Source of the DNA: Cyanobacteria bacterium P01_A01_bin.114
GTDB taxonomy: Bacteria > Cyanobacteriota > Cyanobacteriia > Phormidesmidales > Phormidesmidaceae
Assembly (NCBI GenBank): GCA_039815385.1
Contig: JBCBZL010000088.1
Coordinates: 1 to 15,377, forward strand
Direction: 5' to 3'
Length of the DNA stretch: 15,377 nt
A program made the position numbers and the translations under genes. Positions within the stretch are counted from its first letter, which is position 1; every line of letters starts with the position of its first letter. Below are positions 1 through 15,377 of this stretch, in pieces. The notes under the pieces were generated by a model. The model was not told the DNA's origin. It did no database searches and saw only the letters and a list, made by a program, of their open reading frames with translations.

Positions 1-135
1 CGCTGGGTGTTTCCACAGAGTTAAACCTCCGCGAGATATCAATCAATAATTTGGTGCTGCTGCCCGCATCGTTTTCTAGGCTGGAGAACAGGGGATTGAG
101 GGGGCGGGGGAGCCTCTTTTCCACCTACTCACGGC

Positions 136-259
136 ATGTGCAACTTTTCTACTCCCCCCTTTCTCAAGGGGGGTTGGGGGGATCTCAATCTGTCAAAGGG
201 TAGGTCGATCCCCCTCGGTCCCCCTTGAGAAGGGGGATGTTCACTCAAAAGTTGCACAT
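136..259. repeat. Imperfect nested inverted-repeat element (MITE-like or large stem-loop) immediately 3' of the D2 paralog
   Basis: ATGTGCAACTTTT (136-148) is the exact reverse complement of AAAAGTTGCACAT (247-259). Each arm carries its own hairpin: CCCCCCTT-tctc-AAGGGGGG at 154-173 and CCCCCTT-gag-AAGGGGG at 220-236. A central pair GGGGGATC (177-184) / GATCCCCC (207-214) is also present. The right end lies 5 nt from the psbD3 stop codon. Confidence 0.7.
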
Positions 260-263
260 CGCG

Positions 264-1322
264 TTACTCAGAAAACCCCCTCGGTAAAACCTCTTCTGGA
301 AAGACAAACTTTTTCGCAGGCTGATCAAGCTCTGATACCCAGGCGCGTACCCCTTCATTGAGCAAAACATTTTTAGTGTAAAAAGTTTCGAACTCGGGAT
401 CTTGTGCCGCTCGGATTTCTTGACTCACAAAGTCATACGCTCGTAAGTTAAAAGCCAAACCCACCATGCCGATAGCGCTCATCCACAAGCCTGTTACCGG
501 CACAAACAGCATAAAGAAGTGGAGCCAACGCTTGTTAGAAAACGCAATCCCAAAGATTTGTGACCAAAAGCGATTAGCCGTCACCATCGAGTAGGTTTCT
601 TCTGCCTGAGTCGCGGAGAACCCACTAAAGGTGTTTTTACCTTCAGAATCTTTGAAAAGGGTATTTTGCACCGTTGCGCCATGAATCGCGCAGAGCAAGG
701 CCGCCCCCAGCACCCCGGTAACCCCCATCATATGAAAGGGATTGAGAGTGTAATTGTGAAACCCCTGGAAAAATAGCAGAAATCGGAAGATGGCAGCAAC
801 CCCAAAACTCGGTGCAAAAAACCAGCTTGACTGACCCAGCGGATAGATCAAAAATGTCGCGACAAAAACTGCAATGGGGGCTGAAAATGCGATCGCATTA
901 TAAGGCCGAATCCCCACCAAGCGAGCAATCTCAATCTGCCGCAGCATAAAACCCATCAGGCCTAGCACACCGTGGAAGGCGGTAAAATTCCACAGGCCGC
1001 CAATTTGGCACCAGCGGACAAAGTCCCCGTTGGCCTCTGGCCCCCACAAAAACAACAGTGAATGCCCCATGCTCTCGGCGGGGGTAGAGACGGCAGTTGT
1101 GAGAAAATTGCAGCCTTCTAGGTACGAGGTGACCAAGCCGTGGGTATACCAGGAGGTGACAAAGCTAGTGCCGGTAAACCAGGCCCCGATGGCTAAATAA
1201 GCACAGGGAAATAGCAACAGCCCTGACCACCCGATAAATACAAAGCGATCTCGTTTTAACCAGTCGTCAAGCTCGCCTATCCAGCTTCTAGCTGGCTTCA
1301 GCGCTCCCATTGAAATCGTCAT
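264..1322 (-). CDS. psbD3: Photosystem II D2 protein, divergent far-red (FaRLiP) paralog
   Basis: The 352-aa ORF is collinear with D2 from MTI... to ...[10 protein letters not shown]2 hallmarks are present: [27 protein letters not shown] (TyrD context), NPFHMMGV and CAIHGATV (His ligands), [11 protein letters not shown]. Many substitutions relative to the standard D2 I recall (e.g. [16 protein letters not shown]-terminus PRGFSE) and its position in a paralog cluster indicate a second copy. AAGGAG Shine-Dalgarno lies upstream of the ATG. Confidence 0.92.
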
Positions 1323-1349
1323 AATAGTCTCCTTGGGGTTATGTGTGTT

Positions 1350-1883
1350 TTAAGCAACTGACTCACTTTGACCGATACCGTCGTTCATGAAATAAGGAGG
1401 CCCCGGCAGGGCCAGCTCCTGAATAATTTCATCAAAATAAGGAACGATCGCTGCTGCATCGGCCTCTGTTAACTGTGCGATCGCTTCAGCTTTGAGGCAG
1501 CGCATATATTGCAAAATGTTTGTGAGGGGAATCCCGATATTGGTATACAGATCTTTCATCCCCACCAGGCCGATCTCTCTCAAGGGGCGATCGTCTCCAG
1601 CTAGCAAGCAGTAGCTAATCAAGCGAATATACCAACCGACATCTCGCTTGGCTGCCTCAGTTTTGCGACGATTGCCGCTGTTGCTAGGCGTCTTAGGACA
1701 GACCCGCCAAAATTGTCGAGTGCCTCGATCTACAATTGTTTGAGCCTGTTGCTCCAAAGTTTTGGCTAAGCGAATTCGCTCCGCTCCGGTTTTGCAAAAG
1801 GTGCGAATCATCCGCAGCTCACCGGGGGTAGGATAGCGCAGCTCTTCATCGGCGTTGAGAATAACTTGTTTAACGATACTCAT
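1350..1883 (-). CDS. apcD3: Allophycocyanin alpha-type subunit (ApcD-like, far-red paralog) lacking the canonical bilin-binding Cys and carrying a C-terminal extension
   Basis: I place the start at the ATG at 1883 (MSIVKQVILNADEELRY...), the normal phycobiliprotein alpha N-terminus. The track's 209-aa version starts at a TTG at 1979. It shares FWxxCxxTPSNSGN, GWYIRLISY and MRCLK with the other two alpha paralogs in this window. The aligned chromophore Cys (SC[LQ]RD in the paralogs) is Ala here (EAAKRD, codon at 1650-1652). The paralog number is assigned from gene order only. Confidence 0.8.
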   Translation of the reverse strand: MSIVKQVILNADEELRYPTPGELRMIRTFCKTGAERIRLAKTLEQQAQTIVDRGTRQFWRVCPKTPSNSGNRRKTEAAKRDVGWYIRLISYCLLAGDDRPLREIGLVGMKDLYTNIGIPLTNILQYMRCLKAEAIAQLTEADAAAIVPYFDEIIQELALPGPPYFMNDGIGQSESVA

Positions 1884-1890
1884 GGCTCTA

Positions 1891-1950
1891 CAGTTCGGAA
1901 TGTGGCAGCTCGGAATGAGATAATCCGGAAGGCAATAATTCGGAATACTG
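1891..1950. repeat. Four tandem 15-bp units, each containing TCGGAAT/CCGGAAG, directly upstream of the apcD3 start codon
   Basis: Units are cagTTCGGAATgtgg (1891-1905), cagCTCGGAATgaga (1906-1920), taaTCCGGAAGgcaa (1921-1935) and taaTTCGGAATactg (1936-1950). The core recurs at an exact 15-bp period (1895, 1910, 1925, 1940). The array ends 8 nt from the ATG at 1883 on the minus strand. Confidence 0.75.
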
Positions 1951-2100
1951 GGATCTGGGATAAACGCACACGCCTCCAAACCAACCGATATGGATGTGAT
2001 AGTCCAGGGGGTTGAAGGGCTGACAGAACAGCCTTAACCGTCTTAACGATTCTTTAGTGATAGGTTTCATGGGTCAGGTTCTCGATGTTAAAAGAACAAT

Positions 2101-4533
2101 TTAGGACTGGGCGCTGATCTCAGAGTCGACCGTATCCGCAACCGGCACTGTTTGTCCGTCAGGCGAGACCGCTTCTGTACGCCGCTCGCTATTGTCAGAA
2201 GAGATTGGTATGTTTTGCGTAGGCCGGTCTTGCTGGAGCAAATGCGATGGCTGAGCTTTAGACGGTTGAGTATCGTTAGGTGCTCGCTGAGTTTGACGAC
2301 TCGGGGCCATGACAGCCACGCTAGACCGATTCCCGATGCTAGAAACCGGATAGGGATGGTCGCGCATCCATTCACCTGCGGTGGGTGGGTTCTCTCTGGG
2401 CTTTGACCAGGCGACCGGGCCCTGGGGCGATCGCAACGCAAACCCACGCGGCGTCAGGTAGCGCTCGTAGGGGACGATATCTTCCCCAAAGACATCGCCA
2501 TATTCAGCACTGTCGACCAGGGTATCGACAAAGGCATAAAAGCCCTGGCGACCACAGATATCGTAGTAATGAGCCATTTCTCGTCGTCCGTAGGTGGGTC
2601 GCCCCAGCAACCGTCGATGGATATACTCAATTGCCTTGGTGACGTAGAGTTTTTCCCAGGTCATCTGACGAAACCAGCGAGTCTTGGCCAGCTGACGAAT
2701 AAACTCTCGCAGCGTGATCTGGCCTGCCTTGAGCTGAGTTTCGGCCACAGACTGTCGTTGAGTGTCAAAAACCTCGCGGCCAAACACCTGGCGATAGGCT
2801 GCTCGGATAACCGCTTCATGGGAATGGTGGGTGAGGTTCATGCTAGGCGGCGGTCCGGCTGTCGACCGGGCCAAATGGCCATTTCTAACCTGCCTGACCT
2901 GGCCAGACTCCCACCTCAGCACGTGACGGCCTAGGGAACCGGGGGCTCTGCCCAAATGGTTGCCCAGATGGCTGCCATTAACGCTGCCATTAGCGCCTCC
3001 GTTAGTGCTGCCGTGGCCGTTCCCCGCCCCGCTGCCAATTAAAATGCGGCGGCTGTCTTCGCTAAAATGAGCGGGTTGCGCTCTGGGGTCGCGAGTTTCT
3101 TGAGGGAAGATCGCCCCAAATTGAATTTCTAGCGGGTCGTTACCCACACCGTAGACATGTTGATTGGGTAAGGGCTGTTGATAGCTGGCAAAGGTGGTAA
3201 CAAACTGTGGCACCTTGCGAACAGGCGCACTGTACTTAAACAGATCTAGCTGCGGCCCCCAAATTCGGCATTCCTGGGCCTCTAGTCCCAACCCCCTGAG
3301 GAAAGGAACCGTCTCTTCACCAAAATAGTCGGCGTATTCCTCAGAGTCGATGAAGGTGTCTACCAGGGCTGGAAATCCCTGGGCCGAGATCACCTCAAAG
3401 CAGGTCTGAAACTCTTCCATGCAGCTTAACCCCCGTCCGAGAAAGTGGCGGCAGGCTAGCTCAATGCTGCGGCTGATCGTATAGGGCTCGTAATACAGCC
3501 GTCGATAGAGTCGCGATTTCCCCAGCTGACGAATAAACTCTTTCATCGACCAAAGACCGCTTTTAACCTGGGAGGTCAGCTCCGCCACAGCAGGCGCGTA
3601 GGGATGGGTAATATCGCGCTCGAAGACCTGTCGGTAAGCCGCCCGTATCACCTCATCTTTTTCAATGTCAGGCAGATCACGCTTCATCACCCATCGGGGT
3701 CGGGGGCTGCCGCTGTCACCATAGCTCTGGGGTAGCTGTAAGCCTGGATGATGCTTAGAAACCCCAACCCGCAGCCGAGGGGCCGGTTTTTCGACCCAAT
3801 AATCCGTAATCAGCACGTCAAAATACCGCTTGACTAGCGCCGCCGCTGCCGACTTAGCTGAAAAATAGGTGAGGGCTTTCCACTGCATTTCTTGCAGGGC
3901 GACAACGGTGGCCAGGGTGACATCCTCTGGAATCACGCCCCGCAGGCCTCGGGTATTGACACTGATGATGCTAGTGTCACCGGCCACAATGGCGTAGGTC
4001 ACATATCGCAAAAACCAGCTGAGATCCCGCAGCGAGCGCTTCATTCGAACGGGACCGTAGCGAGCGATGTCAATGGCCCGAAATCGACTGGGAACAGCAG
4101 GTTTACCCCCAGCCATCATGCCTTTAACCCACTCCATCAAACCGTTGGAGGCGTCTACAGAGCGGGGGCGATCTTGGACGACAGCCCGCTCTCGCTTTTG
4201 TCGGGTCGCTGCAGAGAGAAAGTCTTCTCCGACGTAGTAGCCTGAGCCCGGCAAACCCAGGGGGTCTTCGGGACGCTCTAGATAGGCCATCGCATTGCCC
4301 CCGACAAAGATGCGATTAGCCCCGGCAGCCACAATTTTGTCGGCTTGCTGAGTCAGGGTCTGGGCAATCTCTAGTCGCTTGAGTCCTGAGCTAAAGAAGG
4401 CTGAGAGTTCTTTGGCCTCGCTCTGGGTTAGATAGCGATCGCGCTGTTGCGCCTCAACAACTACCGCAGTCGGCACAGTGTGATACAGCTGCGGATGGAC
4501 AACTGGGCTGCCCCCGTTAATCTGATCGGTCAT
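2101..4533 (-). CDS. apcE2: Short phycobilisome core-membrane linker (ApcE paralog) with two REP/linker domains and a cysteine-free phycobiliprotein domain
   Basis: 810 aa. The N-terminal phycobiliprotein-like domain has a PB-loop (..PQLYHTVP..DRYL..RLEIAQTLTQQADKIVAAGANRIF..RYGPVRMKRSLRDLSWFLRYVTYAIVAGD..VALQEM). Only two linker (REP) repeats are present: EVIRAAYRQVFERD...FGEETVPFLRGLG (aa ~294-416) and EAVIRAAYRQVFGRE...FGEDIVPYERYLTPRG (aa ~573-697). Housekeeping ApcE has 3-4 REPs. Confidence 0.92.
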   Translation of the reverse strand: MTDQINGGSPVVHPQLYHTVPTAVVVEAQQRDRYLTQSEAKELSAFFSSGLKRLEIAQTLTQQADKIVAAGANRIFVGGNAMAYLERPEDPLGLPGSGYYVGEDFLSAATRQKRERAVVQDRPRSVDASNGLMEWVKGMMAGGKPAVPSRFRAIDIARYGPVRMKRSLRDLSWFLRYVTYAIVAGDTSIISVNTRGLRGVIPEDVTLATVVALQEMQWKALTYFSAKSAAAALVKRYFDVLITDYWVEKPAPRLRVGVSKHHPGLQLPQSYGDSGSPRPRWVMKRDLPDIEKDEVIRAAYRQVFERDITHPYAPAVAELTSQVKSGLWSMKEFIRQLGKSRLYRRLYYEPYTISRSIELACRHFLGRGLSCMEEFQTCFEVISAQGFPALVDTFIDSEEYADYFGEETVPFLRGLGLEAQECRIWGPQLDLFKYSAPVRKVPQFVTTFASYQQPLPNQHVYGVGNDPLEIQFGAIFPQETRDPRAQPAHFSEDSRRILIGSGAGNGHGSTNGGANGSVNGSHLGNHLGRAPGSLGRHVLRWESGQVRQVRNGHLARSTAGPPPSMNLTHHSHEAVIRAAYRQVFGREVFDTQRQSVAETQLKAGQITLREFIRQLAKTRWFRQMTWEKLYVTKAIEYIHRRLLGRPTYGRREMAHYYDICGRQGFYAFVDTLVDSAEYGDVFGEDIVPYERYLTPRGFALRSPQGPVAWSKPRENPPTAGEWMRDHPYPVSSIGNRSSVAVMAPSRQTQRAPNDTQPSKAQPSHLLQQDRPTQNIPISSDNSERRTEAVSPDGQTVPVADTVDSEISAQS

Positions 4534-4565
4534 GGTGTTTCCAAATCTCCAAATTCAACACTGCA

Positions 4566-5045
4566 CTAGGGCATTAGCCCTTGAATCAGATAGTCAAAGT
4601 AGGGGGCTACCTCCGCCGCGTCCTCTAGACTGAGGAAGTCTAAGGTGACTTCCTTGAGACAGCGCATACACTCCACTAAGTTTCTGAGGGGAATCTCCAA
4701 GGAGAGATACATTTCTTTGGCTCCTCTGATGCCGCTAGCCTGAAGCGGATCAATATCACCGACCACCACTGCATAAGAAATCAGGCGGATAAACCAACCC
4801 TGATCGCGCAGGCAGGAGGCCCGAAAGGTTGGGTTCCCGCTATTGCTGGGGGTGACTGCACAGCGCTGCCAAAAACGCTGGCTACCTTTTTCAACAATTG
4901 ACTGGACATTGTTAGTCAGAATAGAAGCAATTCGAAGCCGCTGCTGCCCATCTTGAAAGAAATGGCTAATGGTATCCAGTTCTCCTCGACTGAGATAGCG
5001 GGCCTCTCGATCGGCATTAGAGATTGCCTGGGTAATGATGCTCAT
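4566..5045 (-). CDS. apcD2: Allophycocyanin alpha-type subunit (ApcD-like, far-red paralog)
   Basis: 159 aa, MSIITQAISNADREARYLSRGELD... It retains the chromophore Cys (RASCLRDQGWFIRLISY) and shares FWQRCAVTPSNSGN and ECMRCLK with the other alpha paralogs here. The paralog number is tentative, from the order apcD5-apcB2-apcD2-apcE2-apcD3. Confidence 0.8.
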   Translation of the reverse strand: MSIITQAISNADREARYLSRGELDTISHFFQDGQQRLRIASILTNNVQSIVEKGSQRFWQRCAVTPSNSGNPTFRASCLRDQGWFIRLISYAVVVGDIDPLQASGIRGAKEMYLSLEIPLRNLVECMRCLKEVTLDFLSLEDAAEVAPYFDYLIQGLMP

Positions 5046-5083
5046 GATGAATGGGTTACCTTAACTAATATTCGATTTTGATA

Positions 5084-5210
5084 GGTGAGGGCGCTGCGCT
5101 GGTGAGGGCGCTGCGCTGGTGAGGGCGCTGCGCTGGTGAGGGCGCTGCGCTGGTGAAGACGCTGCGCTGGTGAGGGCGCTACGCTGGTGAGGACGCTGCG
5201 CTGGTGAACA
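5084..5210. repeat. Tandem array of a 17-bp unit GGTGAGGGCGCTGCGCT (about 7.5 copies)
   Basis: Four exact copies lie at 5084-5151. Variant copies follow: GGTGAAGACGCTGCGCT (5152-5168), GGTGAGGGCGCTACGCT (5169-5185), GGTGAGGACGCTGCGCT (5186-5202), then a partial GGTGAACA. The array sits in the apcB2-apcD2 intercistronic spacer. The unit length is not a multiple of 3 and no ORF spans it. Confidence 0.9.
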
Positions 5211-5220
5211 GTGAAGACTT

Positions 5221-5290
5221 CATCACCTACTCACCTACTCACCTACTCACTCACTCACCCACTCACCCACTCACCACTCACCCCCTCGCC
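5221..5290. repeat. Degenerate octamer array (CACCTACT x3, then CACTCACT, CACCCACT x2, CACCACT, CACCCCCT)
   Basis: The sequence reads catCACCTACTCACCTACTCACCTACTCACTCACTCACCCACTCACCCACTCACCACTCACCCCCTCGCC. Its CTCACC cores are the reverse complement of the GGTGAG cores of the adjacent 17-bp array. The array ends 7 nt before the apcB2 stop. Confidence 0.85.
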
Positions 5291-5296
5291 TAACGA

Positions 5297-5782
5297 CTAG
5301 CTGAGCCCCGAGCAGATATGGTCAAAGCAAACTCCCATTTCTCGACCGGCTTCTGCCCCTAGCATCTCGTTGACCACTTCCTTCATCGCCTGCACAGAGC
5401 GTACTGTAGCCCCCACTGGTACCCCCAGAGAGTTGTAAGTTTCTTTTAAGCCGTTGAGCACGCGCTCATCTAAAATGGACGGATCGCCCGCCAGCATGGC
5501 GTAGGTCGCATAGCGCAAGAAATACTCGACGTCACGAACACAGGCCGCATAGCGGCGACAGGTATACATATTGCCGCCGGGGCCAGTAATGTCGGTATAG
5601 AGGAGCGCTTTGGCGACTGTTTTGGTAACAATTGTGGAGGTGTTAGCGCTGATGGACATCGCTGCCCGCGCTCGCAAATCGCCACTGCGAAAATAGGATT
5701 GCAGATTTTCTAATGAAGCGTCGTCTAAATACTTACCTTGCACGTCAGAAGAATTGATCAAGGTGGTGATGGCGTCTTGCAT
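5297..5782 (-). CDS. apcB2: Allophycocyanin beta subunit, far-red paralog
   Basis: 161 aa, [20 protein letters not shown]... with the beta-type chromophore site [23 protein letters not shown] and [20 protein letters not shown] Shine-Dalgarno upstream. It lies directly downstream of an alpha-type gene, as in apcA-apcB operons. Confidence 0.9.
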
Positions 5783-5847
5783 GTTTTTCTCCTTAAGGGT
5801 TTGAAAATGATTGAATGATCTGTTGGCTATTAAAATTTGCGTCTTGA

Positions 5848-6324
5848 CTACAGCAGAGAATGGATAATGAGATCAAAATAGGGAGCCACCTCTTGGGCAT
5901 CTTCTTCGCTCAAGACGGTCATGGCTTCTTCCTTGAGACAGCGCATGCACTCTGCAATATTCCTAATCGGGATTTCTAGATTGTTGTACATTTCTTTGAT
6001 GCCCACCGTGCCAATTTCTTCTAGGGGGCGTTCGCTGCCTGCCAAGATAGAGTAGGCAATCAAGCGAACATACCAGCCTTGATCGCGCTGACAGGAGGCT
6101 GTCTTACGCTCATTGCCGCTGTTGCTTGGGGTATTTGGGCAGCGCTCCCAGAACTTTTGACTGCCGTTTTGGACAATCCGCTGTTCATTTTCGGCCAGGG
6201 CCCTGGCAATGCGAATGCGCTGTTCTCCCGTTTTGACAAAGTCTTGAAAGATTCGAAGTTCCTTGGGCGCAGGGTAGCGAGCTTCACTATCTGCACTGAG
6301 AATGAGTTCTGTAACCAGGCTCAT
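5848..6324 (-). CDS. apcD5: Allophycocyanin alpha-type subunit (far-red paralog, first gene of the apc block)
   Basis: 158 aa, [23 protein letters not shown]... It retains the chromophore Cys ([17 protein letters not shown]) and has [14 protein letters not shown] and ECMRCLK. Its position immediately upstream of apcB2 suggests the gene originally called apcA2 and later apcD5. That symbol is tentative. Confidence 0.8.
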
Positions 6325-6497
6325 TGTAATTTCTCCCTGTTTAAACGTTAATAATCAACTGGGTTTTCAAGTTTTCGCTTTCAGTCATCACAGCAAGATT
6401 TGGCATATAAAATTTGAACTCTTGCGTTCTAGAAAACGCTGATATCTGCCTAGATATCTCCCAACAAGGGACTTGCGGCGAAATAACCTACCGCTAA

Positions 6498-6654
6498 GCC
6501 CTCATCCTAAATCCTTCTCCCAATCTGGGAGAAAGACTTTGATCTGAGCCAGCTTTTCCCTGGCGAAGGACTCTTAAAACAATCGAATTCTACGTTGAGA
6601 AAGGCTTGGCTCCCCTTCTCTCAGTACTGGGAGAAGGGGTTGGGGGATGAGGGC
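6498..6654. repeat. MITE-like inverted-repeat element in the apcD5/psbO divergent intergenic region
   Basis: The termini are exact reverse complements: GCCCTCATCC (6498-6507) and GGATGAGGGC (6645-6654). Imperfect ~40-bp arms each contain a CTTCTCCCA..TGGGAGAAG-type hairpin. The right arm ends in GGGGTTGGGGGAT, related to the element at 136-259. Confidence 0.7.
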
Positions 6655-6767
6655 CTGTGAGCATGCTAGCTACCAGTATGTTATCTGTTTGCAGGTCCCT
6701 AAATGCCCGTCAAGCCTCGGGGAGACTCTTCTTACTAAGGTTTGCAAGAAGAATAAGCAAAGAAAAT

Positions 6768-6871
6768 GGAGAACTTATGAAAATATGAAAACTGCTTAAT
6801 AAAGGTTAATAATTAGCGGTGAACAGATTTCGTCTTCAGATTTCGTCTTCATAAGTTCTCCAGTTTTTTTT
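6768..6871 (+). promoter_or_regulatory. 13-bp perfect inverted repeat enclosing a 13-bp x2 direct repeat and followed by a T8 tract, ~105-205 bp upstream of psbO
   Basis: GGAGAACTTATGA (6768-6780) is the exact reverse complement of TCATAAGTTCTCC (6849-6861). This is followed by AG and TTTTTTTT (6864-6871). Inside the loop are CAGATTTCGTCTT x2 (6824-6836, 6837-6849) and TATGAAAA x2 (6776-6791). The function is unknown; it could be an attenuator, an operator or a small MITE. Confidence 0.4.
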
Positions 6872-6974
6872 GGTTGAATTTGTATCGTGGGATAGCGCCT
6901 TGTAGTCGCTTTGTCAGCGTACGAACGCACAGGGGCTGCTATGCCAATAGAAGAGTCTATAAGAGAGTAAAGAG

Positions 6975-7805
6975 ATGAGATATCGCACTTTAATGATGAG
7001 TTTATTAGTCTTGTGTTTTGGAGTATTCATGGCTTGCAGTCGTGCGCCGAGCGCGCAAGCTGAAGGATTAAGCTACGACGACATTAAAGGGAGCGGACTG
7101 GCTAATAACTGCCCTGAGCTTTCGCAGAGCAGTCTAGATGCCATTGTTATAGATGCTGATCAGTCTTATCAACTGAATGGGCTGTGCTTACAGCCCGAAG
7201 CGTTTTTGGTGAGGCGAGCGCCCCTCATAAAGCGCCAGGAGAGCAAATTTGTGCGCACCAAGCCCCTCACTCGGGAGAGTTTTAGCCTCGATCAGGTTAG
7301 CGGTGCTCTACAGAGGGGGGCCGATGGAAATTTGGCGTTTGTTGAGCAAGGAGGATTTGACTTTCAGCCTGTGACGGTTCAACTGCCTGATGGCGAGCGA
7401 GTGCCCCTGCTGTTTACAGTTAAAGGATTAGTGGCTAAAAAACAAGATGATTCAAACAACTTCGGCCCCTCTACTCGCCTGGTGGGCACCTTTCAGGTAC
7501 CGCCCTACCGGACTTCTAGCTTTATTGATCCAAAGGGTCGGGGCTTAGCCGTGGGCTACGATGCGGCGGTGGGGCTGCCGAGTCAGGCAGACCGTGAAGC
7601 ATTTGCTCGTCAGAACATTAAGACGTTTGATATTGGGCAGGGACGGATTGCGCTGCAAATTAATCGGGTCAACCGCACAACCGGAGAAATTGCCGGTCTT
7701 TTTGAAAGCGAGCAGCCGTCTGATACCGACTTCGGTTCTAAAGAAGCGATGGATGTCAAAATTCGAGGGCAGTTCTACGGTCGCATTGAGCCGGCAGTCG
7801 TTTAG
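6975..7805 (+). CDS. psbO: PSII manganese-stabilising protein (PsbO) paralog with signal peptide
   Basis: 276 aa. An N-terminal hydrophobic signal (MRYRTLMMSLLVLCFGVFMAC..SAQA) precedes PsbO hallmarks: LSYDDIKGSGLANNCPE, LCLQPEAFLV, GGFDFQPVTVQLPDGERVPLLFTVKGLV, FIDPKGRGLAVGYDAAVGLP, TGEIAGLFESEQPSDTDFG and VKIRGQFYGRIEP. The conserved Cys pair is present. Confidence 0.92.
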   Translation: MRYRTLMMSLLVLCFGVFMACSRAPSAQAEGLSYDDIKGSGLANNCPELSQSSLDAIVIDADQSYQLNGLCLQPEAFLVRRAPLIKRQESKFVRTKPLTRESFSLDQVSGALQRGADGNLAFVEQGGFDFQPVTVQLPDGERVPLLFTVKGLVAKKQDDSNNFGPSTRLVGTFQVPPYRTSSFIDPKGRGLAVGYDAAVGLPSQADREAFARQNIKTFDIGQGRIALQINRVNRTTGEIAGLFESEQPSDTDFGSKEAMDVKIRGQFYGRIEPAVV

Positions 7806-7832
7806 TCGAGTTTTAATAAGAGGTTCTTTATC

Positions 7833-7967
7833 ATGACTAACTTGAATCGTGACCCAGAGATTATCTATCCTATCTTTACGATTCGGTGGCTGTCGGTGCA
7901 TGCACTGGCGATTCCGAGCGTATTTTTCTTAGGGGCGATCGCAGCGATGCAGTTTATTCAGCGCTGA
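7833..7967 (+). CDS. psbF: Cytochrome b559 beta subunit (PsbF) paralog; small ORF absent from the supplied track
   Basis: My own translation of ATG 7833 to TGA 7965-7967 gives [44 protein letters not shown] (44 aa). This matches the PsbF pattern YPIFT[VI]RWL[AS]VH..[AV][15 protein letters not shown], including the heme-ligand His. It starts 27 nt after the psbO stop. Confidence 0.88.
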
Positions 7968-8064
7968 GGCTGCACCAGGGCATAATCACGCTGAGAAGCC
8001 CGTAAATTGGATGGGGTGAAATACGCTTTCTGAATCGCAACCGCCTCTGAATCGCAATCGCCGT

Positions 8065-8098
8065 AGAAGCCGGATTTTCTAATCCGGCTTCTTTTCTT
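8065..8098 (+). terminator. Intrinsic terminator hairpin between convergent psbF and psbV
   Basis: A perfect 12-bp stem is formed by AGAAGCCGGATT (8065-8076) and AATCCGGCTTCT (8081-8092), with loop TTCT, followed by TTTCTT on the plus strand. On the minus strand the same stem lies 20 nt after the psbV stop but has no U-tract. Confidence 0.7.
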
Positions 8099-8111
8099 AT
8101 GGGCTGTCAAC

Positions 8112-8636
8112 CTAGCGGGCAGGTTTGCCGCCGGCCCACTTGTCGCCAATGATTTTAGGCTGGACCAAAATATAGCCTGCGATCGCAACTAAATCATCCT
8201 CAGTCAAATCTCGCATCTTGGGAAAGAGATCGGCTCTTGACATGGACGGGTGCAGTTCGGCAATCGAGGAAACCCCATCGTAGGTGGTGGGGTTCTCAAA
8301 ATAATCAACCAGGCTTTCAATATTGTCACGGGGTGGGGTTGCTAACGCCAACGCTTGAGGCCCTAGATCGACATCAGGATTAGGTTTGCTCACCCCATCT
8401 AAGTGACACTGGGCACAGCTGCCATTAAACTTGCGCTGACCCACAACGAGTTGTTCCAGGCTCAGCGTGAGGGTTTCCCCTGACGCGTTGAGCGGAACCG
8501 TGCGGGTAGCCTCGTCAATTTCAACGGCGAGCGCCCTATTAGCCCCGATCACCGCCCATAGAACAGATGAAAGGGATATCACCAGCACAGCGTATATAGC
8601 AAACTTGATTAAGTTTTTTTTGAAATAGGCAATCAT
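8112..8636 (-). CDS. psbV: Cytochrome c550 (PsbV) paralog with signal peptide
   Basis: 174 aa. A signal peptide ends ..ANRALA. PsbV hallmarks follow: TVPLNASGETLTLS, heme motif CAQCH, LALATPPRDNIESLVDYFENPTTYDG, ELHPS (distal His), DLFPKMRDLTEDDLVAIAGYILVQPKIIGDKWAGGK. AGGAG Shine-Dalgarno upstream. Confidence 0.9.
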   Translation of the reverse strand: MIAYFKKNLIKFAIYAVLVISLSSVLWAVIGANRALAVEIDEATRTVPLNASGETLTLSLEQLVVGQRKFNGSCAQCHLDGVSKPNPDVDLGPQALALATPPRDNIESLVDYFENPTTYDGVSSIAELHPSMSRADLFPKMRDLTEDDLVAIAGYILVQPKIIGDKWAGGKPAR

Positions 8637-8737
8637 TTCGACATATCTCCTGAAAACGGTTTTGCCAAGTAAATAGCCATAACTAAGGGATCTGTGGGAT
8701 TTGCAACAAATAACATCTCGCTTCTAAATCGGGGGTT

Positions 8738-8840
8738 GGGTAGTGGGTAGTGGGTAGTGGGTAGTGAGTTGTTTGTTACTTGTTACTCGTTATTTGTAAT
8801 TGAAGTCACCAATCACCAATCACCAATCACCTACTCACAC
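8738..8840. repeat. STRR-like short tandem repeat block (GGGTAGTG x4, TGTTACT-like x3, CACCAAT x3, CACCTACTCAC)
   Basis: The sequence reads GGGTAGTGGGTAGTGGGTAGTGGGTAGTGAGTTGTTTGTTACTTGTTACTCGTTATTTGTAATTGAAGTCACCAATCACCAATCACCAATCACCTACTCACAC. It lies 100-200 bp upstream of the psbV start. Confidence 0.85.
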
Positions 8841-8972
8841 ACTCTGTCAGCTTTGACGAGCAGTTTATTTTTACGCCGATCCCTAAACTAAAGAAGATGA
8901 CATCTTCTTAAAAGATCTCCTTGAGGCAAACAAGTAGGTAAGCAAAATTATTTTCAGTACCACTTTCTGGTT

Positions 8973-9051
8973 GAGATCCCCCCAGCCCCCCTTAGCTCTA
9001 GCGAAGCGGCGGGCAAAGCCCGCGGGGGTGGCGCAGCCGGGGGGATCCCTC
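8973..9051. repeat. Inverted-repeat element related to the one at 136-259, in opposite orientation
   Basis: GATCCCCCC (8975-8983) pairs with GGGGGGATC (9039-9047), with an inner hairpin GCGGGC-aaa-GCCCGC (9009-9023). The reverse complement of 8973-8993 (AAGGGGGGCTGGGGGGATCTC) differs at one base from 166-186 (AAGGGGGGTTGGGGGGATCTC). Confidence 0.7.
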
Positions 9052-9347
9052 GGAAACGTGAAACAGTGAGTAATTTACTGACGCGGTACTTATTCTCCTC
9101 AAAGCGGAGTCAAGTTAGAGCTATATATCTAATAGCTTGAAAGTATCATACTCTTCTGGCCCTCAATGAATCAGATACCCTTTTTTGAAATAAGAAAGAA
9201 CAAAATTAGCATTCCCTTGTAACTTTTTCTAACACTGATCTTGGCCTTCATTAGTTCTCCATATTTCTCTTTTATTCTTGGCTTCACTGGCTGACAGACA
9301 GGTCGTACAGATCTAGTTGCGATCGTCAGAATAATTCGACTACAAAA

Positions 9348-9379
9348 CTATTCTCAGCTACTGTCTATTCTCAGCTACT
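9348..9379 (+). repeat. Exact 15-bp direct repeat CTATTCTCAGCTACT x2 (17-bp period) ~145-175 bp upstream of chlF
   Basis: Copies lie at 9348-9362 and 9365-9379, separated by GT, in an AT-rich region with no ORF. This is a candidate transcription-factor site, but only the repeat itself is observed. Confidence 0.8.
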
Positions 9380-9522
9380 AACATCTGTTGAGACTCAGCA
9401 GTCTCTGATCTATTTTCTGACCCGTATCTGGCTACCGCAGACAGCCTTTTATTGTGCTAAGCAGTTATTTTTGTGAACAACTTCAGTGACTTCAAAAAAT
9501 CAGTTAATACAGGAGCTTTAAG

Positions 9523-10764
9523 ATGACACAGTTTGGTAGAACGATCGCTTTTAATCGTCCTGACCAACTCCCTGGCCAACTCAAAGCGCCGGATAGCGTG
9601 TCTGACATCGAAAGCCTGTCCAGTGGTGTGAGCCCTCCAGATAGAGCCGCGATTCCAGAGCCCATTTCTCTTTGGGAACGCTTTTGTCGTTGGGTGACGA
9701 GTACTGAAAATCGGATCTACATTGGCTGGTTTGGGATGATTATGTTTCCCACCCTGTCTACGGCTGCCATTGTCTTTGTGCTGGCGTTTATAGCTGCGCC
9801 CGCAGTTGATATGGAGGGGACTGGGAGAGTCCTTTCGGGGGCTCTATTTGATGGAAATAACCTGATTACAGCCGCTGTTGTGCCGACTTCAGCTGCGATT
9901 GGGCTGCATTTTTACCCCATTTGGGAAGCTGCCTCTTTAGAGGAATGGCTCGTCAACGGGGGGCCGTATCAGCTAATTGTGCTGCATTTCATTATTGGCA
10001 TCATCAGCTATCAAGACCGAGAGTGGGAATTAAGCTATCGCTTAGGCATGCGCCCCTGGATTTCGCTGGCGTTTACAGCACCGGTTGCAGCGGCTGTCTC
10101 AGTGTTATTAATTTATCCGATTGGTCAGGGCAGCTTTTCGTCGGGCATGCCCTTGGGTATTTCGGGTACCTTTACCTTCATGCTGCAGTTTCAAGCCGAT
10201 CACAACATTCTGGCCAACCCGTTTCATCAGCTAGGGGTCATCGGTGTCTTTGGCGGTGCTTTGCTGTGTGCAGTCCACGGCTCATTAGTGACATCAGCCC
10301 TGATTCGACAAACTGACCACGGGTCTGATCGCGAATCTACGTTACCAGCGCGAGCTGAGTTGAAGAGAGCCCAAACAAAAATCCAGAGAAAAGCCCAGAA
10401 AACTTATAGCTTTGAGCATATCCAGGGCTACCAGCAGAAGCTGTTCTGGCGTGGGGTGAGTTTCAAAAACTCACGGTCTGTACACTTTGTTTTAGCGGCT
10501 CTCCCTGTGGCGGGTATCTGGTCGGCAGCATTGGGGATCGACATGGCTGCTTTTGGCTTTGATCAATTTTCTGGGTCTTCCAATGGATATTTCCAGAAAA
10601 CGGTCGTGCCCACCTGGTCTGATATTGTTGTTCGGGCCGATCTGGGGCTTCAGGCGGTTGAAGACACCCGTGAACCGATGTTCCCAATTTTTCTGGGAGA
10701 GGAGTCTGAATTTGATGTCAATACAGATGTCAATACGAATATTGCCGATCTAGACATGACTTGA
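9523..10764 (+). CDS. chlF: Super-rogue D1 paralog: chlorophyll f synthase (ChlF / PsbA4)
   Basis: 413 aa with a D1 fold ([70 protein letters not shown]). It has a ~37-aa N-terminal extension, a 12-aa basic insertion in the D-E loop and a C-terminal extension. The Mn4CaO5 ligand positions are replaced: D170>S (codon 10141-10143), E189>D, H332>E, H337>P, D342>F. The D1 Y-M-G-R triplet region reads Y-Q-D-R (QD codons 10012-10017). AGGAG Shine-Dalgarno upstream. Confidence 0.88.
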
Positions 10765-10814
10765 TTCATACCTAGACGGTTCAGCAAGCTTATTTAGCGA
10801 AAAGGAGTGTTGTA

Positions 10815-13166
10815 ATGACCACAAGTCCTCCGGAGCAGAGGCAGCAGGTTAGGGTTGTCGTCGATGATAATCCGGTTCCTACATCCTTTGAGAAGTGGGC
10901 AAAGCCGGGGCATTTTGAGCGAACCCTGGCACGGGGCCCCAAAACCACCACCTGGATTTGGGATCTGCATGCCGATGCCCATGATTTTGATAGTCATACC
11001 AGTGATTTGGAAGAGATTTCTCGAAAAATCTTCTCTGCCCATTTTGGTCATTTGGCCATCGTATTTATTTGGCTGAGTGGAATGTATTTCCACGGGGCTC
11101 GCTTTTCTAACTTTTCTGCTTGGATGAGCGACCCGACTCATATCAAGCCGAGTGCTCAAGTCGTTTGGCCAATTGTTGGGCAAGACATCCTCAACGCCGA
11201 TGTGGGGGGCGGCTTCCGGGGCATCCAAATTACCTCCGGGCTGTTTCAAATGTGGCGTGGACAAGGGTTTACCCATGAGTTCCAGCTTTACTGGACGGCC
11301 ATCGGTGCGCTAGTCATGGCGGCGCTGATGCTGTTTGCCGGCTGGTTTCACTACCACGTTCGGGCTCCCAAGCTAGAGTGGTTTCTCAACTGGGAGTCGA
11401 TGATGAACCATCACCTGGCAGGTCTGCTGGGGATGGGCAGTCTGGGCTGGGCTGGGCACCTGATCCATGTGGCACTGCCTACCAATAAGCTGCTGGATGC
11501 TGGGGTCGCCTTGGAAAACATTCCCCTACCCCATGATTTCATTCTGGATAAGGGGCTGATGGCAGAGCTCTATCCTAGCTTTGCCCAGGGTGTGAAGCCG
11601 TTTTTTACGCTGAACTGGTCGGCCTATACCGATTTTCTCACCTTTAGGGGTGGGCTCAATCCGGTGACGGGGGGCCTGTGGATGACGGATATTGCGCATC
11701 ATCATGTTGCGATCGCAGTCCTATTCATCATTGCAGGGCATTTCTACCGCACCAACTGGGGCATTGGCCACACCTTTAATGAGCTGCTGGACGATGCCAG
11801 AACCCCCAAAATGCTGCCCATCTTTAACTTTATTGGGCCGGTCGGACACCGGGGTCTTGAGAAAATCTTTGAGACGTCGTGGCACGCCAATCTCTCTATC
11901 CACCTGGTTCAGTTTGGTACGGCTAGTCTGCTGGTGGCTCATCACATGTACGCGATGCCGCCCTACCCCTACTTAGCCACGGACTATGCCACCGTGACCT
12001 CGCTGTTTACCCATCACGTCTGGATTGCAGGCTTCTGCATTGTGGGCGGGGCTGCCCATGCCGCCATCTTTATGGTGAGAGACTACAACCCCGCTGATCA
12101 CGTTAACAATGTGCTCGATCGGGTGTTACGCCATCGAGACGCGATTATCTCTCACCTGGCCTGGGTCTGTCAGTTCTTAGGCTTCCACAGCTTTGCCATG
12201 TACTGTCACAACGACACCATGCGAGCCTTTGGCCGTCCCCAGGATATGTTTTCTGACACCGGGATTCAGCTCCAGCCCATTTTTGCCCAGTGGATTCAGC
12301 ACATTCACACCATGGCGGTGGGCAGCCTGCAAGCGGCAGAGCCCCTGGGCAGTGCCTTTGGCGGTCTGCGTAACATCGAGCTGTCGGGCCTGGGCACCAC
12401 GGTTCCTGGAATGGCTGAGCCGGTCAGCTACGCCTTTGGCGGCGGCGTCCTGGCGGTGGGTGGCAAAGTCGCCATGATGCCCATTCCCCTGGGCACTGCC
12501 GATTTCTTAATCCATCACATTCACGCTTTCACCATTCATGTGACGGTGCTGGTACTGCTCAAAGGGGTGCTGTTTGCCCGCAGTTCTCGCTTGATTCCTG
12601 ATAAGGGCGAGCTGGGCTTCCGATTCCCCTGCGATGGGCCGGGCCGGGGGGGCACCTGCCAAGTGTCTGCCTGGGATCACGTGTTCTTAGGGTTGTTCTG
12701 GATGTATAACTCGCTTTCGATTGTGATATTTCACTTCTTTTGGAAAATGCAATCGGACGTCTGGGGCACGGTAAGCGCCGATGGCACCATTACTCATATT
12801 ACGGGGGGCAACTTTGCCCTGTCATCGATTACCAACAACGGCTGGCTGCGCGATTTTCTCTGGGCGCAGGCTTCCCAGGTGATCAACTCCTACGGCTCGG
12901 CACTGTCTGCCTACGGAATCATGTTCCTGGCTGGGCACTTTGTCTTTGGCTTTAGCCTGATGTTTTTATTCAGCGGTCGCGGCTACTGGCAAGAGCTGAT
13001 CGAGTCGATTGTTTGGGCTCACAACAAGCTGAAAATTACCACCGCGATTCAGCCTCGAGCCTTGAGTATCACCCAAGGACGAGCCGTGGGCGTTGCCCAC
13101 TACCTGTTAGGAGGTATTGTCACCACCTGGGCCTTCTTTTTGGCCCGTATGTCCGCAGTCGGATAG
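10815..13166 (+). CDS. psaA2: Photosystem I P700 apoprotein A1, far-red paralog
   Basis: 783 aa, collinear with PsaA: [31 protein letters not shown], the FX motif [19 protein letters not shown], and the C-terminal [36 protein letters not shown]. It has many substitutions and a ~24-aa insertion relative to the standard PsaA I recall. It lies 50 nt downstream of chlF, with AAGGAG Shine-Dalgarno upstream. Confidence 0.93.
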
Positions 13167-13211
13167 TGCCCAACCTTCTTCAATTGATCATTGAAAACTC
13201 AATTTAGAACC

Positions 13212-15377
13212 ATGGCGACAAAATTTCCAAAATTTAGTCAGGATTTACAGCGAGATCCGACCACCCGTCGGCTCTTCTATTCGATCGCCACGGCCCATGA
13301 CTTCGAAAGCCACGATGGGATGACGGAGGAAAACCTTTACCAGAGGATTTTTGCCTCCCACTTTGGTCATCTCGCCATTATCTTCCTGTGGATATCGGGC
13401 ATTTTGTTTCATGTGGCCTGGCAGGGCAATTTTGAACAGTGGATTCAAGATCCGCTGAACCGATCACCAATTGCCCACGCGATTTGGGATGCCCAGTTTG
13501 GACCGGCTGCGATTGAAGCCTATACCCAGGCAGGTGCCAGGAATCCGGTGGATATTTGCTATTCCGGGGTCTATCACTGGTGGTACACCATCGGCATGCG
13601 CACCAACAACGATCTGTTTGTGGGTGCTATCTTTTTGCTGCTGCTAGCCTCGGTAATGCTCTATGCCGGGTGGCTACACCTACAGCCCCGCTTTCGCCCC
13701 AACTTAAGCTGGTTTAAGAATGCCGAGTCTCGCCTAAACCACCATCTAGCTGGTTTGTTTGGGGTCAGCTCCCTGGCCTGGGCTGGGCACTTAATCCACG
13801 TGGCCATTCCTGAATCACGGGGCCAGCATGTGGGCTGGGATAACTTTCTAGCTGTGCCGCCCCATCCCGCCGGGCTGACGCCGTTTTTCACCGGCAACTG
13901 GGGAGCCTATGCTCAAAATCCTGATACGGCAGAGCATATTTTCAACAGCTCTCAGGGCGCAGGCACCGCAATTCTCACCTTTCTAGGAGGCTTCCACCCC
14001 CAGACAGAATCCCTGTGGCTGACGGATATGGCCCATCACCACCTGGCAATCGCGGTGATCTTTATCATCGCGGGTCACATGTACCGCACTAACTTTGGCA
14101 TCGGTCACAATATTAAAGAAATGACCGAAGCCCTCCAGGGGCCAGGGTGGAAAGGGTTCTTTATTGCGCCTCGCACCGGGCGCGGTCACAAGGGTATCTA
14201 TGATGCCTACAACAACTCTCTGCACTTTCAGCTGGCCTGGCATCTGGCCTGTTTAGGCGTCGTGTGCTCCCTGGTGGCGCAGCACATGTATTCAATGCCG
14301 CCCTATGCCTTTATGGCTCGCGACTACACCACCATGTCGGCCCTCTATACCCATCACCAGTACATCGCTGGGTTCCTGATGGTGGGGGCATTTGCCCACG
14401 GGGCGATTTTCCTGGTGCGCGACTACGACCCAGAAGCCAACAAAGACAACGTGCTGGCTCGGGTGCTAGACCACAAAGAGGCGATTATTGCCCACCTTAG
14501 CTGGGTGTGCTTGTTCCTAGGTTTCCACACGCTGGGGCTCTACGTTCACAACGACTGCGAGGTGGCCTTTGGCGCGCCCGAAAAACAGATTCTGGTTGAG
14601 CCCGTCTTTGCCCAGTGGATTCAAGCCTTTCACGGCAAAGCCCTCTATGGCATCAACACCCTGCTGTCTAACCCGGACAGCATTGCCACCACGGCCTGGC
14701 CCAATCACGGCAACGTCTGGCTGTCGGGCTGGCTAGAAGGGATCAACAGCGGTGCCAACTCGCTGTTTCTGACCATTGGACCAGGCGACTTTTTGGTACA
14801 CCATGCGATCGCACTGGGCCTCCACGTCACCACTCTAATTTTGGTGAAAGGAGCCTTAGACGCTCGCGGCTCGAAGCTGATGCCAGACAAAAAAGACTTT
14901 GGCTATAGCTTCCCCTGTGACGGCCCCGGTCGCGGCGGCACCTGCGACATCTCCGCCTGGGATTCTTTTTACCTGGCCATGTTCTGGATGCTCAACACGT
15001 TAGGCTGGGTTACCTTCTACTGGCACTGGAAACACCTGGCCATTTGGGGTGGCAACGTTGCCCAGTTTAACGAAAGCTCAACCTACTTAATGGGCTGGTT
15101 CCGCGACTATCTGTGGCTCAATTCATCCCAGCTGATCAATGGCTACAACCCTTACGGCACCAACAACCTGGCCGTTTGGGCCTGGATGTTCCTGTTAGGC
15201 CATCTCGTCTGGGCGGTGAGCTTTATGTTCTTAATCACCTGGCGAGGCTACTGGCAAGAACTGATTGAGACCCTGCTGTGGGCCCATGAAAATACCCCCC
15301 TCTCCTTTGGCTATCCCAAAGATAAGCCCGTTGCCCTGTCTATCGTGCAGGCTCGACTGGTCGGGCTAACCCATTTC
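13212..15377 (+). CDS. psaB2: Photosystem I P700 apoprotein A2, far-red paralog (3' end truncated by the window; missing from the ORF track because no stop is reached)
   Basis: My own translation from ATG 13212 gives [60 protein letters not shown]... The frame stays open for 722 codons to 15377. It contains [28 protein letters not shown] (from 14880) and ends ...[46 protein letters not shown], about 20 residues short of a normal PsaB C-terminus. Confidence 0.93.

Follow-up and report, generated by a model that had tools for sequence, protein, structure and literature searches.

The apcE2 locus

The window analysed here comprises 15,377 nucleotides, positions 1 to 15,377 of the forward strand of contig JBCBZL010000088.1 (assembly GCA_039815385.1), from the cyanobacterium P01_A01_bin.114, and contains no ambiguous bases. 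Its minus strand carries, between positions 2101 and 4533, an open reading frame (ORF) that we take with high confidence to be apcE2, encoding the far-red paralogue of the phycobilisome core-membrane linker within a far-red light photoacclimation (FaRLiP) cluster. The same confidence extends to the functional side of this reading, in which a valine (Val205) in place of the usual bilin-attachment cysteine would leave the chromophore non-covalently bound and absorbing near 700 nm, within a bicylindrical core. The features of the gene that bear on this reading are as follows.

2101..4533, minus strand: apcE2 coding sequence, stop codon included, for the 810-residue far-red core-membrane linker (ORF translation, Pfam, PDB)
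3784..4533, minus strand: phycobiliprotein domain, residues 1-250, alpha-like, bilin-binding and cysteine-free (PF00502 match, cysteine positions)
4078..4281, minus strand: PB-loop insertion, residues 85-152 (alignment)
4210..4257, minus strand: ApcE2-specific PB-loop motif GLPGSGYYVGEDFLSA, residues 93-108 (alignment)
3994..4029, minus strand: bilin-pocket helix RDLSWFLRYVTY, residues 169-180 (conservation)
3919..3936, minus strand: VIPEDV motif, residues 200-205, replacing the ENACS-like motif of ApcE1 (exact match)
3919..3921, minus strand: codon GTC for Val205, equivalent of the bilin-attachment cysteine of the housekeeping paralogue ApcE1 (alignment column)
3280..3672, minus strand: REP1 linker domain, about residues 288-418, holding C361 (PF00427; PDB matches 2l06, 3osj and 9k9w_a9)
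3451..3453 and 3421..3423, minus strand: REP1 cysteines C361 and C371, respectively (clade-specific)
2458..2832, minus strand: REP2 linker domain, about residues 568-692 (best PF00427 stretch 570-691)
2833..3048 and 2101..2343, minus strand: diverged parts, namely the G/N/S-rich arm 2 (residues 496-567) and the C-terminal tail (residues 731-810) (identity to the nearest relative)

The translation runs uninterrupted through 810 residues, and its N-terminus agrees with those of homologues, placing the start codon correctly. Pfam profiles recognize one PF00502 domain and two stretches of PF00427 (linker/REP), which establishes the domain count, and the first of these linker domains superimposes on 3osj in Foldseek with a TM-score of 0.95, normalised to target length. 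At 810 residues the protein compares with 726-842 for full-length ApcE2-like matches and 1085-1140 for ApcE1 matches. The NCBIfam profiles include no ApcE model and returned for this protein only sub-threshold CpcG and ApcA matches. An AlphaFold model computed from a 42-sequence alignment (mean pLDDT 56, pTM 0.32) is reliable for the three folded domains only, with arms and tail disordered when modelled alone, and was used for domain-level fold matching only. The low confidence of the arms is expected because they fold only inside the allophycocyanin core.

A valine at the bilin-attachment site

By script count, cysteine occurs in the 810-residue protein only at residues 361, 371, 378, 422 and 660. 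The interval 3799..4533, which corresponds exactly to residues 1-245, holds none, and the cysteine-free region in fact extends through residue 360, the earliest cysteine being C361 in the REP1 segment SIELACRHF. An earlier sequence-only reading of this DNA had noted both the absence of cysteine from the first 250 residues and the location of the first one in the ELACRHF of the first REP domain, and the counts confirm it on both. The bare absence of cysteine is nevertheless unremarkable, because a cysteine-free stretch of 245 residues has a chance probability of about 0.09-0.16 at cysteine frequencies of 0.7-1%; it is the site of the loss that is non-random. When the 120 top relatives from a homology search were aligned, they fell cleanly into 53 long proteins (>1000 residues; ApcE1, carrying 3-4 REP domains) and a short group of 67 (<=900 residues; ApcE2-like). 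The bilin-attachment column is occupied by cysteine in 53/53 ApcE1 proteins, in keeping with the earlier statement that housekeeping ApcE uses a cysteine of this domain, and by valine (65) or isoleucine (2) in all 67 ApcE2-like proteins. The alignment with ApcE1, which that reading had put forward as the way to find the replacing residue, identifies it as Val205.

Since the attachment cysteine is the sole cysteine of the domain in 52 of the 53 ApcE1 proteins, having "no cysteine at all" amounts to having the attachment cysteine replaced. The phrase itself, taken from the sequence-only reading, is true of this protein and does not define the family: 43 of the 67 ApcE2-like domains have no cysteine, and the other 24 carry one or two elsewhere, for instance at the equivalents of residues 223 and 246, on which ground total absence of cysteine was rejected as a signature of ApcE2. 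In the ApcE2 of Oscillatoria sp. CS-180 (P0018), a cysteine occupies the position matching Arg195, which precedes the attachment site by ten residues.

The local context has changed along with the residue itself. The protein reads GLRGVIPEDVT where ApcE1 has GLREIIEnACS, so that PEDVT stands where the autocatalytic cysteine of ApcE1 lies in its ENACS-like motif. VIPEDV is an established marker motif of far-red ApcE2 (Antonaru et al. 2020, PMC7608106). A phycobiliprotein domain without cysteine cannot itself form a thioether to the bilin.

A covalent bond could still arise if the bilin were attached through a cysteine outside the domain, such as C361 or C371 of REP1, or through a partner subunit. 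These two cysteines have no assigned role and are characteristic of the clade, C361 being conserved as cysteine in 53 and C371 in 64 of the 67 ApcE2-like proteins, while all 53 ApcE1 proteins have phenylalanine and serine, respectively, at these positions. The structurally characterised homologues speak against their involvement. ApcE2 of Synechococcus sp. PCC 7335 possesses both cysteines ("sielacrhflgrglscmeefq"), yet its bilin is non-covalent by cryo-EM, and that of C. thermalis PCC 7203 has neither ("ielaarhflgrglss") and holds the same non-covalent bilin. Furthermore, REP1 is a separate domain inside the allophycocyanin ring, away from the bilin pocket. We regard such a displaced linkage as very improbable.

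Conservation of the bilin pocket

Replacement of the attachment cysteine has left the pocket intact. Its helix residues R169, D170, W173, F174, Y177 and Y180 show no substitution in any of the 53 ApcE1 or 67 ApcE2-like proteins. With numbering mapped through PDB alignments, W173 is the counterpart of Trp177 in C. thermalis ApcE2, the residue that stacks on ring D (PMC12152189), and F174 that of Phe172 in Synechococcus 7335 ApcE2 (PMC10810746).

This conservation bears directly on whether the cysteine-less domain might be free of chromophore, with ApcE2 serving only as a scaffold, an idea that gains what footing it has from the fact that bilin binding is ascribed to this particular protein by analogy. 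Invariance of the pocket across 120 ApcE1 and ApcE2 sequences argues against it, as does the retention of a small aliphatic residue at the former attachment site, with synonymous valine codons across relatives. Indeed, phycocyanobilin (PCB) is present in ApcE2 of both homologue structures, and the recombinant Synechococcus 7335 domain, in which valine likewise replaces the cysteine, binds PCB, with fluorescence at 714 nm (PMC5578081). A pigment-free scaffold thus seems scarcely more than a nominal alternative.

Eight related loci (L001 to L008) were drawn from the genome collection. Across seven relatives of independent assembly, the former attachment position is encoded by GTC, GTT or GTG (Val), ATC (Ile) or GCC (Ala), never by TGY, a pattern that reflects selection for a small aliphatic residue. 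The alanine codon belongs to Leptolyngbya cf. ectocarpi LEGE 11479 (L003, 10001..13172) and the isoleucine codon to L004, where the motif reads VMPEDI.

The codons also bear on whether the missing cysteine arose through an error of sequencing or assembly, or marks a decaying apcE pseudogene, as might be feared of a window that is a single metagenomic contig. Sequencing error is implausible because GTC lies two substitutions from any cysteine codon and none of the seven assemblies shows TGY; the same class of residue recurs in these assemblies and in 67/67 relatives. Against decay stand the intact 810-residue ORF with its correct N-terminus and the preserved synteny. In comparison with the nearest relative, change is confined to the arms and the folded domains stay 90-99% identical, as expected under purifying selection. 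Both an artefact and a pseudogene are hardly credible.

Assignment to the far-red paralogue

The protein was placed in the ApcE2 clade from alignment columns that discriminate the two groups, from the distribution of identities and from gene order. In eleven columns ApcE1 and ApcE2 each have a fixed state of their own, which the other group never shows. Seven of these columns lie at or near the attachment site (199, 202, 204, 205, 206) or in other parts of the bilin domain, and the protein shows the ApcE2 state at 11/11. Its bilin domain is 58-90% identical to those of ApcE2-like proteins (mean 72%) vs 47-51% for ApcE1 (mean 50%). Among PDB sequences, chain 8uhe_K, annotated as ApcE2 of Synechococcus 7335, ranks first with 1022 bits; ApcE1 chains reach at most 918 and 9i1r_K, the C. 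thermalis protein, 908. The two-REP ApcE of S. elongatus (9wg7_N2, 705 residues) scores 729 bits, below ApcE2 and even below ApcE1 proteins with 3-4 REP domains. Foldseek searches with the AlphaFold model place 9i1r_K first (E = 3e-45) and then 8uhe_K, both from FaRLiP cores. The identity of the protein as ApcE2, proposed in the sequence-only reading, is demonstrated by these columns, by the VIPEDV motif, by the two top structural matches and by the conserved FaRLiP synteny, and the protein shows every diagnostic trait of ApcE2 that can be read from sequence.

That it might instead be a white-light ApcE with two REP domains, as in Synechococcus elongatus and Trichodesmium (PMC4390838; 9wg7_N2), which lacks the cysteine by chance, can be dismissed with near certainty given the low S. 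elongatus score beside the 1022 and 908 bits of the ApcE2 chains, the VIPEDV motif with the full set of ApcE2 states, and the flanking apcD2, apcD3, apcD5, apcB2, chlF, psaA2 and psbD3 genes. Sequencing error, pseudogene and two-REP white-light ApcE were accordingly all rejected, on evidence of codon, ORF, motif, score and synteny.

Proposed mechanism and its basis

In ApcE1, the attachment cysteine forms a thioether to C3(1) of PCB. With Val205 in its place and the pocket retained, the bilin would be held by non-covalent contacts only, which would preserve the ethylidene double bond of ring A and thereby lengthen the conjugated system. Longer conjugation, a flatter chromophore and stacking of tryptophan on ring D would together move absorption from about 660 to about 700 nm and emission to about 714 nm, making ApcE2 the lowest-energy terminal emitter, which would pass excitation to chlorophyll-f-containing photosystem II (PSII). 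Each REP domain is expected to thread one allophycocyanin hexamer (ApcD5/ApcB2, with ApcD2, ApcD3 and ApcF), and two copies of ApcE2 would organize a rod-less bicylindrical core.

Each of these steps has a published counterpart. PCB is not covalently linked in ApcE2 of the Synechococcus 7335 structure 8UHE (PMC10810746; Gisriel et al. 2023), and in the core structure containing C. thermalis ApcE2 the bilin is likewise non-covalent, in a ZZZ,ssa geometry (PMC12152189). In recombinant form, ApcE2 of Synechococcus 7335 absorbs near 700 nm, vs about 660 nm for the covalent form, as Miao 2016 is summarised in PMC7608106 and PMC5578081. Bilin binding, its non-covalent state, the spectrum and the core architecture are therefore supported for the protein of the window by analogy with characterised homologues, to which it is 61% identical overall and 66% in the bilin domain. 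The earlier attribution of a shift to about 700 nm to non-covalent PCB stands in this sense, by homology to 8UHE, C. thermalis and the recombinant Synechococcus 7335 protein, and needs amending in that the missing thioether is not its sole cause: greater coplanarity of the rings and tryptophan stacking on ring D also contribute (PMC12152189). In a similar manner, the two REP domains from which a bicylindrical far-red core had been predicted are present as two PF00427 stretches, and bicylindrical cores, inferred in the literature from the presence of only two REP domains in ApcE2 (PMC4390838), have now been seen as a structure (PMC12152189). The count is not specific to far-red linkers, however, as white-light ApcE of Synechococcus 6301/7942 also has two REP domains (PMC4390838).

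Several considerations temper this interpretation. The missing thioether alone accounts for about 40 nm (PMC4390838), the remainder being due to a protein environment that differs in part from those of the characterised homologues, and it is from those homologues that the bilin binding and spectrum proposed for this ApcE2 are drawn. The source is uncultured and represented by a 15.4-kb metagenomic contig, and its nearest relative, at 83% identity, is itself a metagenome-assembled genome (MAG). Finally, the AlphaFold model is free of ligand and confident only within domains.

The missing attachment cysteine is already a published hallmark of ApcE2, and the present sequence is a new but ordinary orthologue. 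A cysteine-less ApcE2 with a non-covalent, red-shifted bilin was predicted in 2014 (Gan et al.), established biochemically in 2016 (Miao et al.) and visualized by cryo-EM in 2023 and 2025, and VIPEDV is already used to mark chlorophyll-f photosynthesis in the environment. The practical worth of the analysis lies in annotating the contig as a FaRLiP cluster, with little consequence for biology at large. An additional natural ApcE2, divergent in its arms and tail, could nonetheless aid the engineering of near-infrared fluorescent proteins and comparisons of far-red antenna tuning.

The FaRLiP cluster and its relatives

The genes surrounding apcE2 are arranged in the order psbD3-apcD3-apcE2-apcD2-apcB2-apcD5 / psbO2-psbF2 / psbV2 / chlF-psaA2-psaB2.

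264..1322, minus strand: psbD3, far-red D2 paralogue, downstream of apcD3 (TIGR01152 psbD, 702 bits; same position in relatives)
1350..1883, minus strand: apcD3, 177 residues from ATG (best PDB match 8uhe_C, "ApcD3")
4566..5045, minus strand: apcD2, 159 residues, cysteine kept (RASCLRD) (best PDB match 8uhe_I, "ApcD2")
5297..5782, minus strand: apcB2, 161 residues, far-red beta subunit (best PDB match 8uhe_B, "ApcB2")
5848..6324, minus strand: apcD5, 158 residues, bulk far-red alpha subunit, cysteine kept (KTASCQRD) (best PDB match 8uhe_A, "ApcD5")
6975..7805, plus strand: psbO2 (PF01716)
7833..7967, plus strand: psbF2, 44 residues, with no psbE adjoining (shorter than the 60-residue ORF cutoff)
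8112..8636, minus strand: psbV2, cytochrome c550 paralogue, CAQCH (sequence and profile match)
9523..10764, plus strand: chlF (psbA4), chlorophyll f synthase paralogue of PsbA (PF00124; psbA model, 460 bits)
10815..13166, plus strand: psaA2 (profile match)
13212..15377, plus strand: psaB2, partial (profile match)

The product of chlF is a divergent PsbA, as its 460 bits against the psbA model fall under the 596-bit cutoff, and it contains the segment YQDREWE, which we take to be the "QD" site of ChlF; its presence marks the surroundings of apcE2 as a FaRLiP cluster. No rfp genes occur in the 15.4-kb window; expression of ApcE2 specifically in far-red light under RfpABC control would be predicted as a trait of the family.

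A second subunit of the operon appears to follow the same chemical logic as ApcE2. ApcD3 has alanine at the canonical bilin cysteine (KTEAAKRD; KTEAAQRD in 8uhe_C), as in Synechococcus 7335 and C. thermalis, a replacement described in PMC4390838, although ApcD3 retains the cysteine in about 27% of species (PMC12152189). Because ApcD2 and ApcD5 retain theirs, the operon encodes two cysteine-less bilin proteins, and two non-covalent bilins per cylinder are predicted, as in Synechococcus 7335. ApcD3 and ApcF2 share with ApcE2 the principle by which loss of the thioether cysteine leads to non-covalent PCB and a red shift (PMC10810746, PMC12152189, PMC4390838), and differ from it in being small subunits of alpha or beta type that carry no linker domain and whose attachment site lies on a different helix (position 81 type). 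A 209-residue ORF with a TTG start, at 1350..1979, is probably an over-extended apcD3, as the ATG at 1883 yields the MSIVKQ N-terminus shared with 8uhe_C.

The gene order is found again in Leptolyngbya cf. ectocarpi LEGE 11479 and several marine MAGs, being identical in L003, L005 and L006 and largely so in L001, L002, L004 and L007; the psbO2/psbF2/psbV2 trio is present in L001, L003-L006 and L008. This synteny, in which chlF is co-oriented with the psa genes and psbO2, psbV2 and psbF2 are present, fits the layout reported for the Nodosilineales lineage of FaRLiP clusters, an early-branching one in which those three psb genes are optional, and we assign the contig with confidence to the FaRLiP cluster of an uncultured cyanobacterium of Nodosilineales type. 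Since the closest relatives are marine MAGs, the source is probably marine as well. The closest ApcE2, from MAG P01_G01_bin.38 (L001), is 83% identical, vs 91-99% for the flanking genes, making ApcE2 the fastest-diverging protein of the cluster. Most of its divergence falls in arm 2 and the C-terminal tail, the folded domains being 90-95% identical; the C. thermalis tail touches the opposing cylinder.

Comparison with characterised linkers

ApcE2 of Synechococcus 7335 (8UHE, chain K) has the same layout of phycobiliprotein domain with PB-loop, REP1, arm, REP2 and tail, and likewise presents valine in a VIPEDV context, the pocket tryptophan and phenylalanine, and the REP1 cysteines. Its operon partners are the same, including the cysteine-less (Ala) ApcD3. 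Identity to it, 61% over the whole protein, is far from uniform: from the 66% of the bilin domain it rises to 80% in the C-terminal half of that domain and drops to 41% in the PB-loop, 19% in the low-complexity, G/N/S-rich arm 2 and 5% in the C-terminal tail. The protein of the window is 27 residues longer. C. thermalis ApcE2 (9I1R, chain K) shares VIPEDV, two REP domains and a PB-loop motif, there GLPGSGYYVGEDFL, and differs in belonging to another order (Chroococcidiopsidales), in having alanine and serine at the positions of C361 and C371, and in its partnership with a cysteine-less ApcF2, which the window does not encode.

Housekeeping ApcE1 (LCM; Nostoc 7120, 4XXI and 7EYD; Synechocystis 6803, 7SC7; T. 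vulcanus, 7VEA) has the same fold, pocket helix, PB-loop position and REP domains, and is, like ApcE2, both terminal emitter and membrane anchor. It differs in its autocatalytic cysteine within an ENACS-like motif, its usual complement of 3-4 REP domains, its spectrum near 660 nm, the lack of an EDYLSA insertion and a bilin domain only about 50% identical.

This insertion belongs to a larger ApcE2-specific motif. The PB-loop motif G[LM]PGSGY[YF][VI][AG]EDYLSA occurs in 65 of the 67 ApcE2-like proteins, and its six-residue EDYLSA segment (residues 103-108) is absent from 53/53 ApcE1. In 8UHE the PB-loop is unmodelled and is expected to face PSII (PMC10810746). The insertion motif and the C361/C371 pair of REP1 might encode far-red roles, the candidates being docking to chlorophyll-f PSII and a redox-sensitive or second pigment site, a suggestion that we consider speculative and rather unlikely. 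ApcE2 of the window is not special among its relatives in either feature.

Non-coding elements

Three kinds of repeated sequence lie in the non-coding DNA of the window.

6767..6781 (minus strand), 6848..6862 (plus strand) and 9247..9261 (plus strand): copies of TTCATNAGTTCTCCA, all oriented alike with respect to the gene downstream
5046..5296: apcB2-apcD2 spacer enlarged by tandem repeats, comprising the 17-nt GGTGAGGGCGCTGCGCT x7.3 (5084-5207) and the 8-nt TCACCCAC x8 (5223-5287)
156..236, downstream of psbD3, and 8971..8993, in the psbV2-chlF spacer: non-coding G/C-rich palindromic repeats AAGGGGGGTTGGGGGGATCTCAA and complement

The 15-nt TTCATNAGTTCTCCA, accompanied by a T-rich run, was observed in three copies against 0.10 expected, at about 440 nt upstream of apcD5, 113 nt of psbO2 and 262 nt of chlF. 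Exact copies are found in 6/8 of the related loci, all intergenic and adjoining apcD5, psbO2 or chlF, and the element may be the T-rich motif that bioRxiv 10.1101/2024.05.15.594131 puts forward as a FaRLiP regulatory element.

On the mRNA strand of the apcB2-apcD2 spacer, (GGUGAGU)n comes before (CUCACCAGCGCAGCGCC)n, with a predicted fold of -100 kcal/mol (z = -3.7). The same spacer has fewer repeat copies in L001, where it measures 137 nt, and is about 50 nt long in other relatives. Located between the genes of bulk subunits and those of single-copy ones, the repeat might affect transcript stoichiometry, which is a speculative suggestion. The AAGGGGGGTTGGGGGGATCTCAA palindromes resemble the small interspersed palindromic repeats of cyanobacteria.

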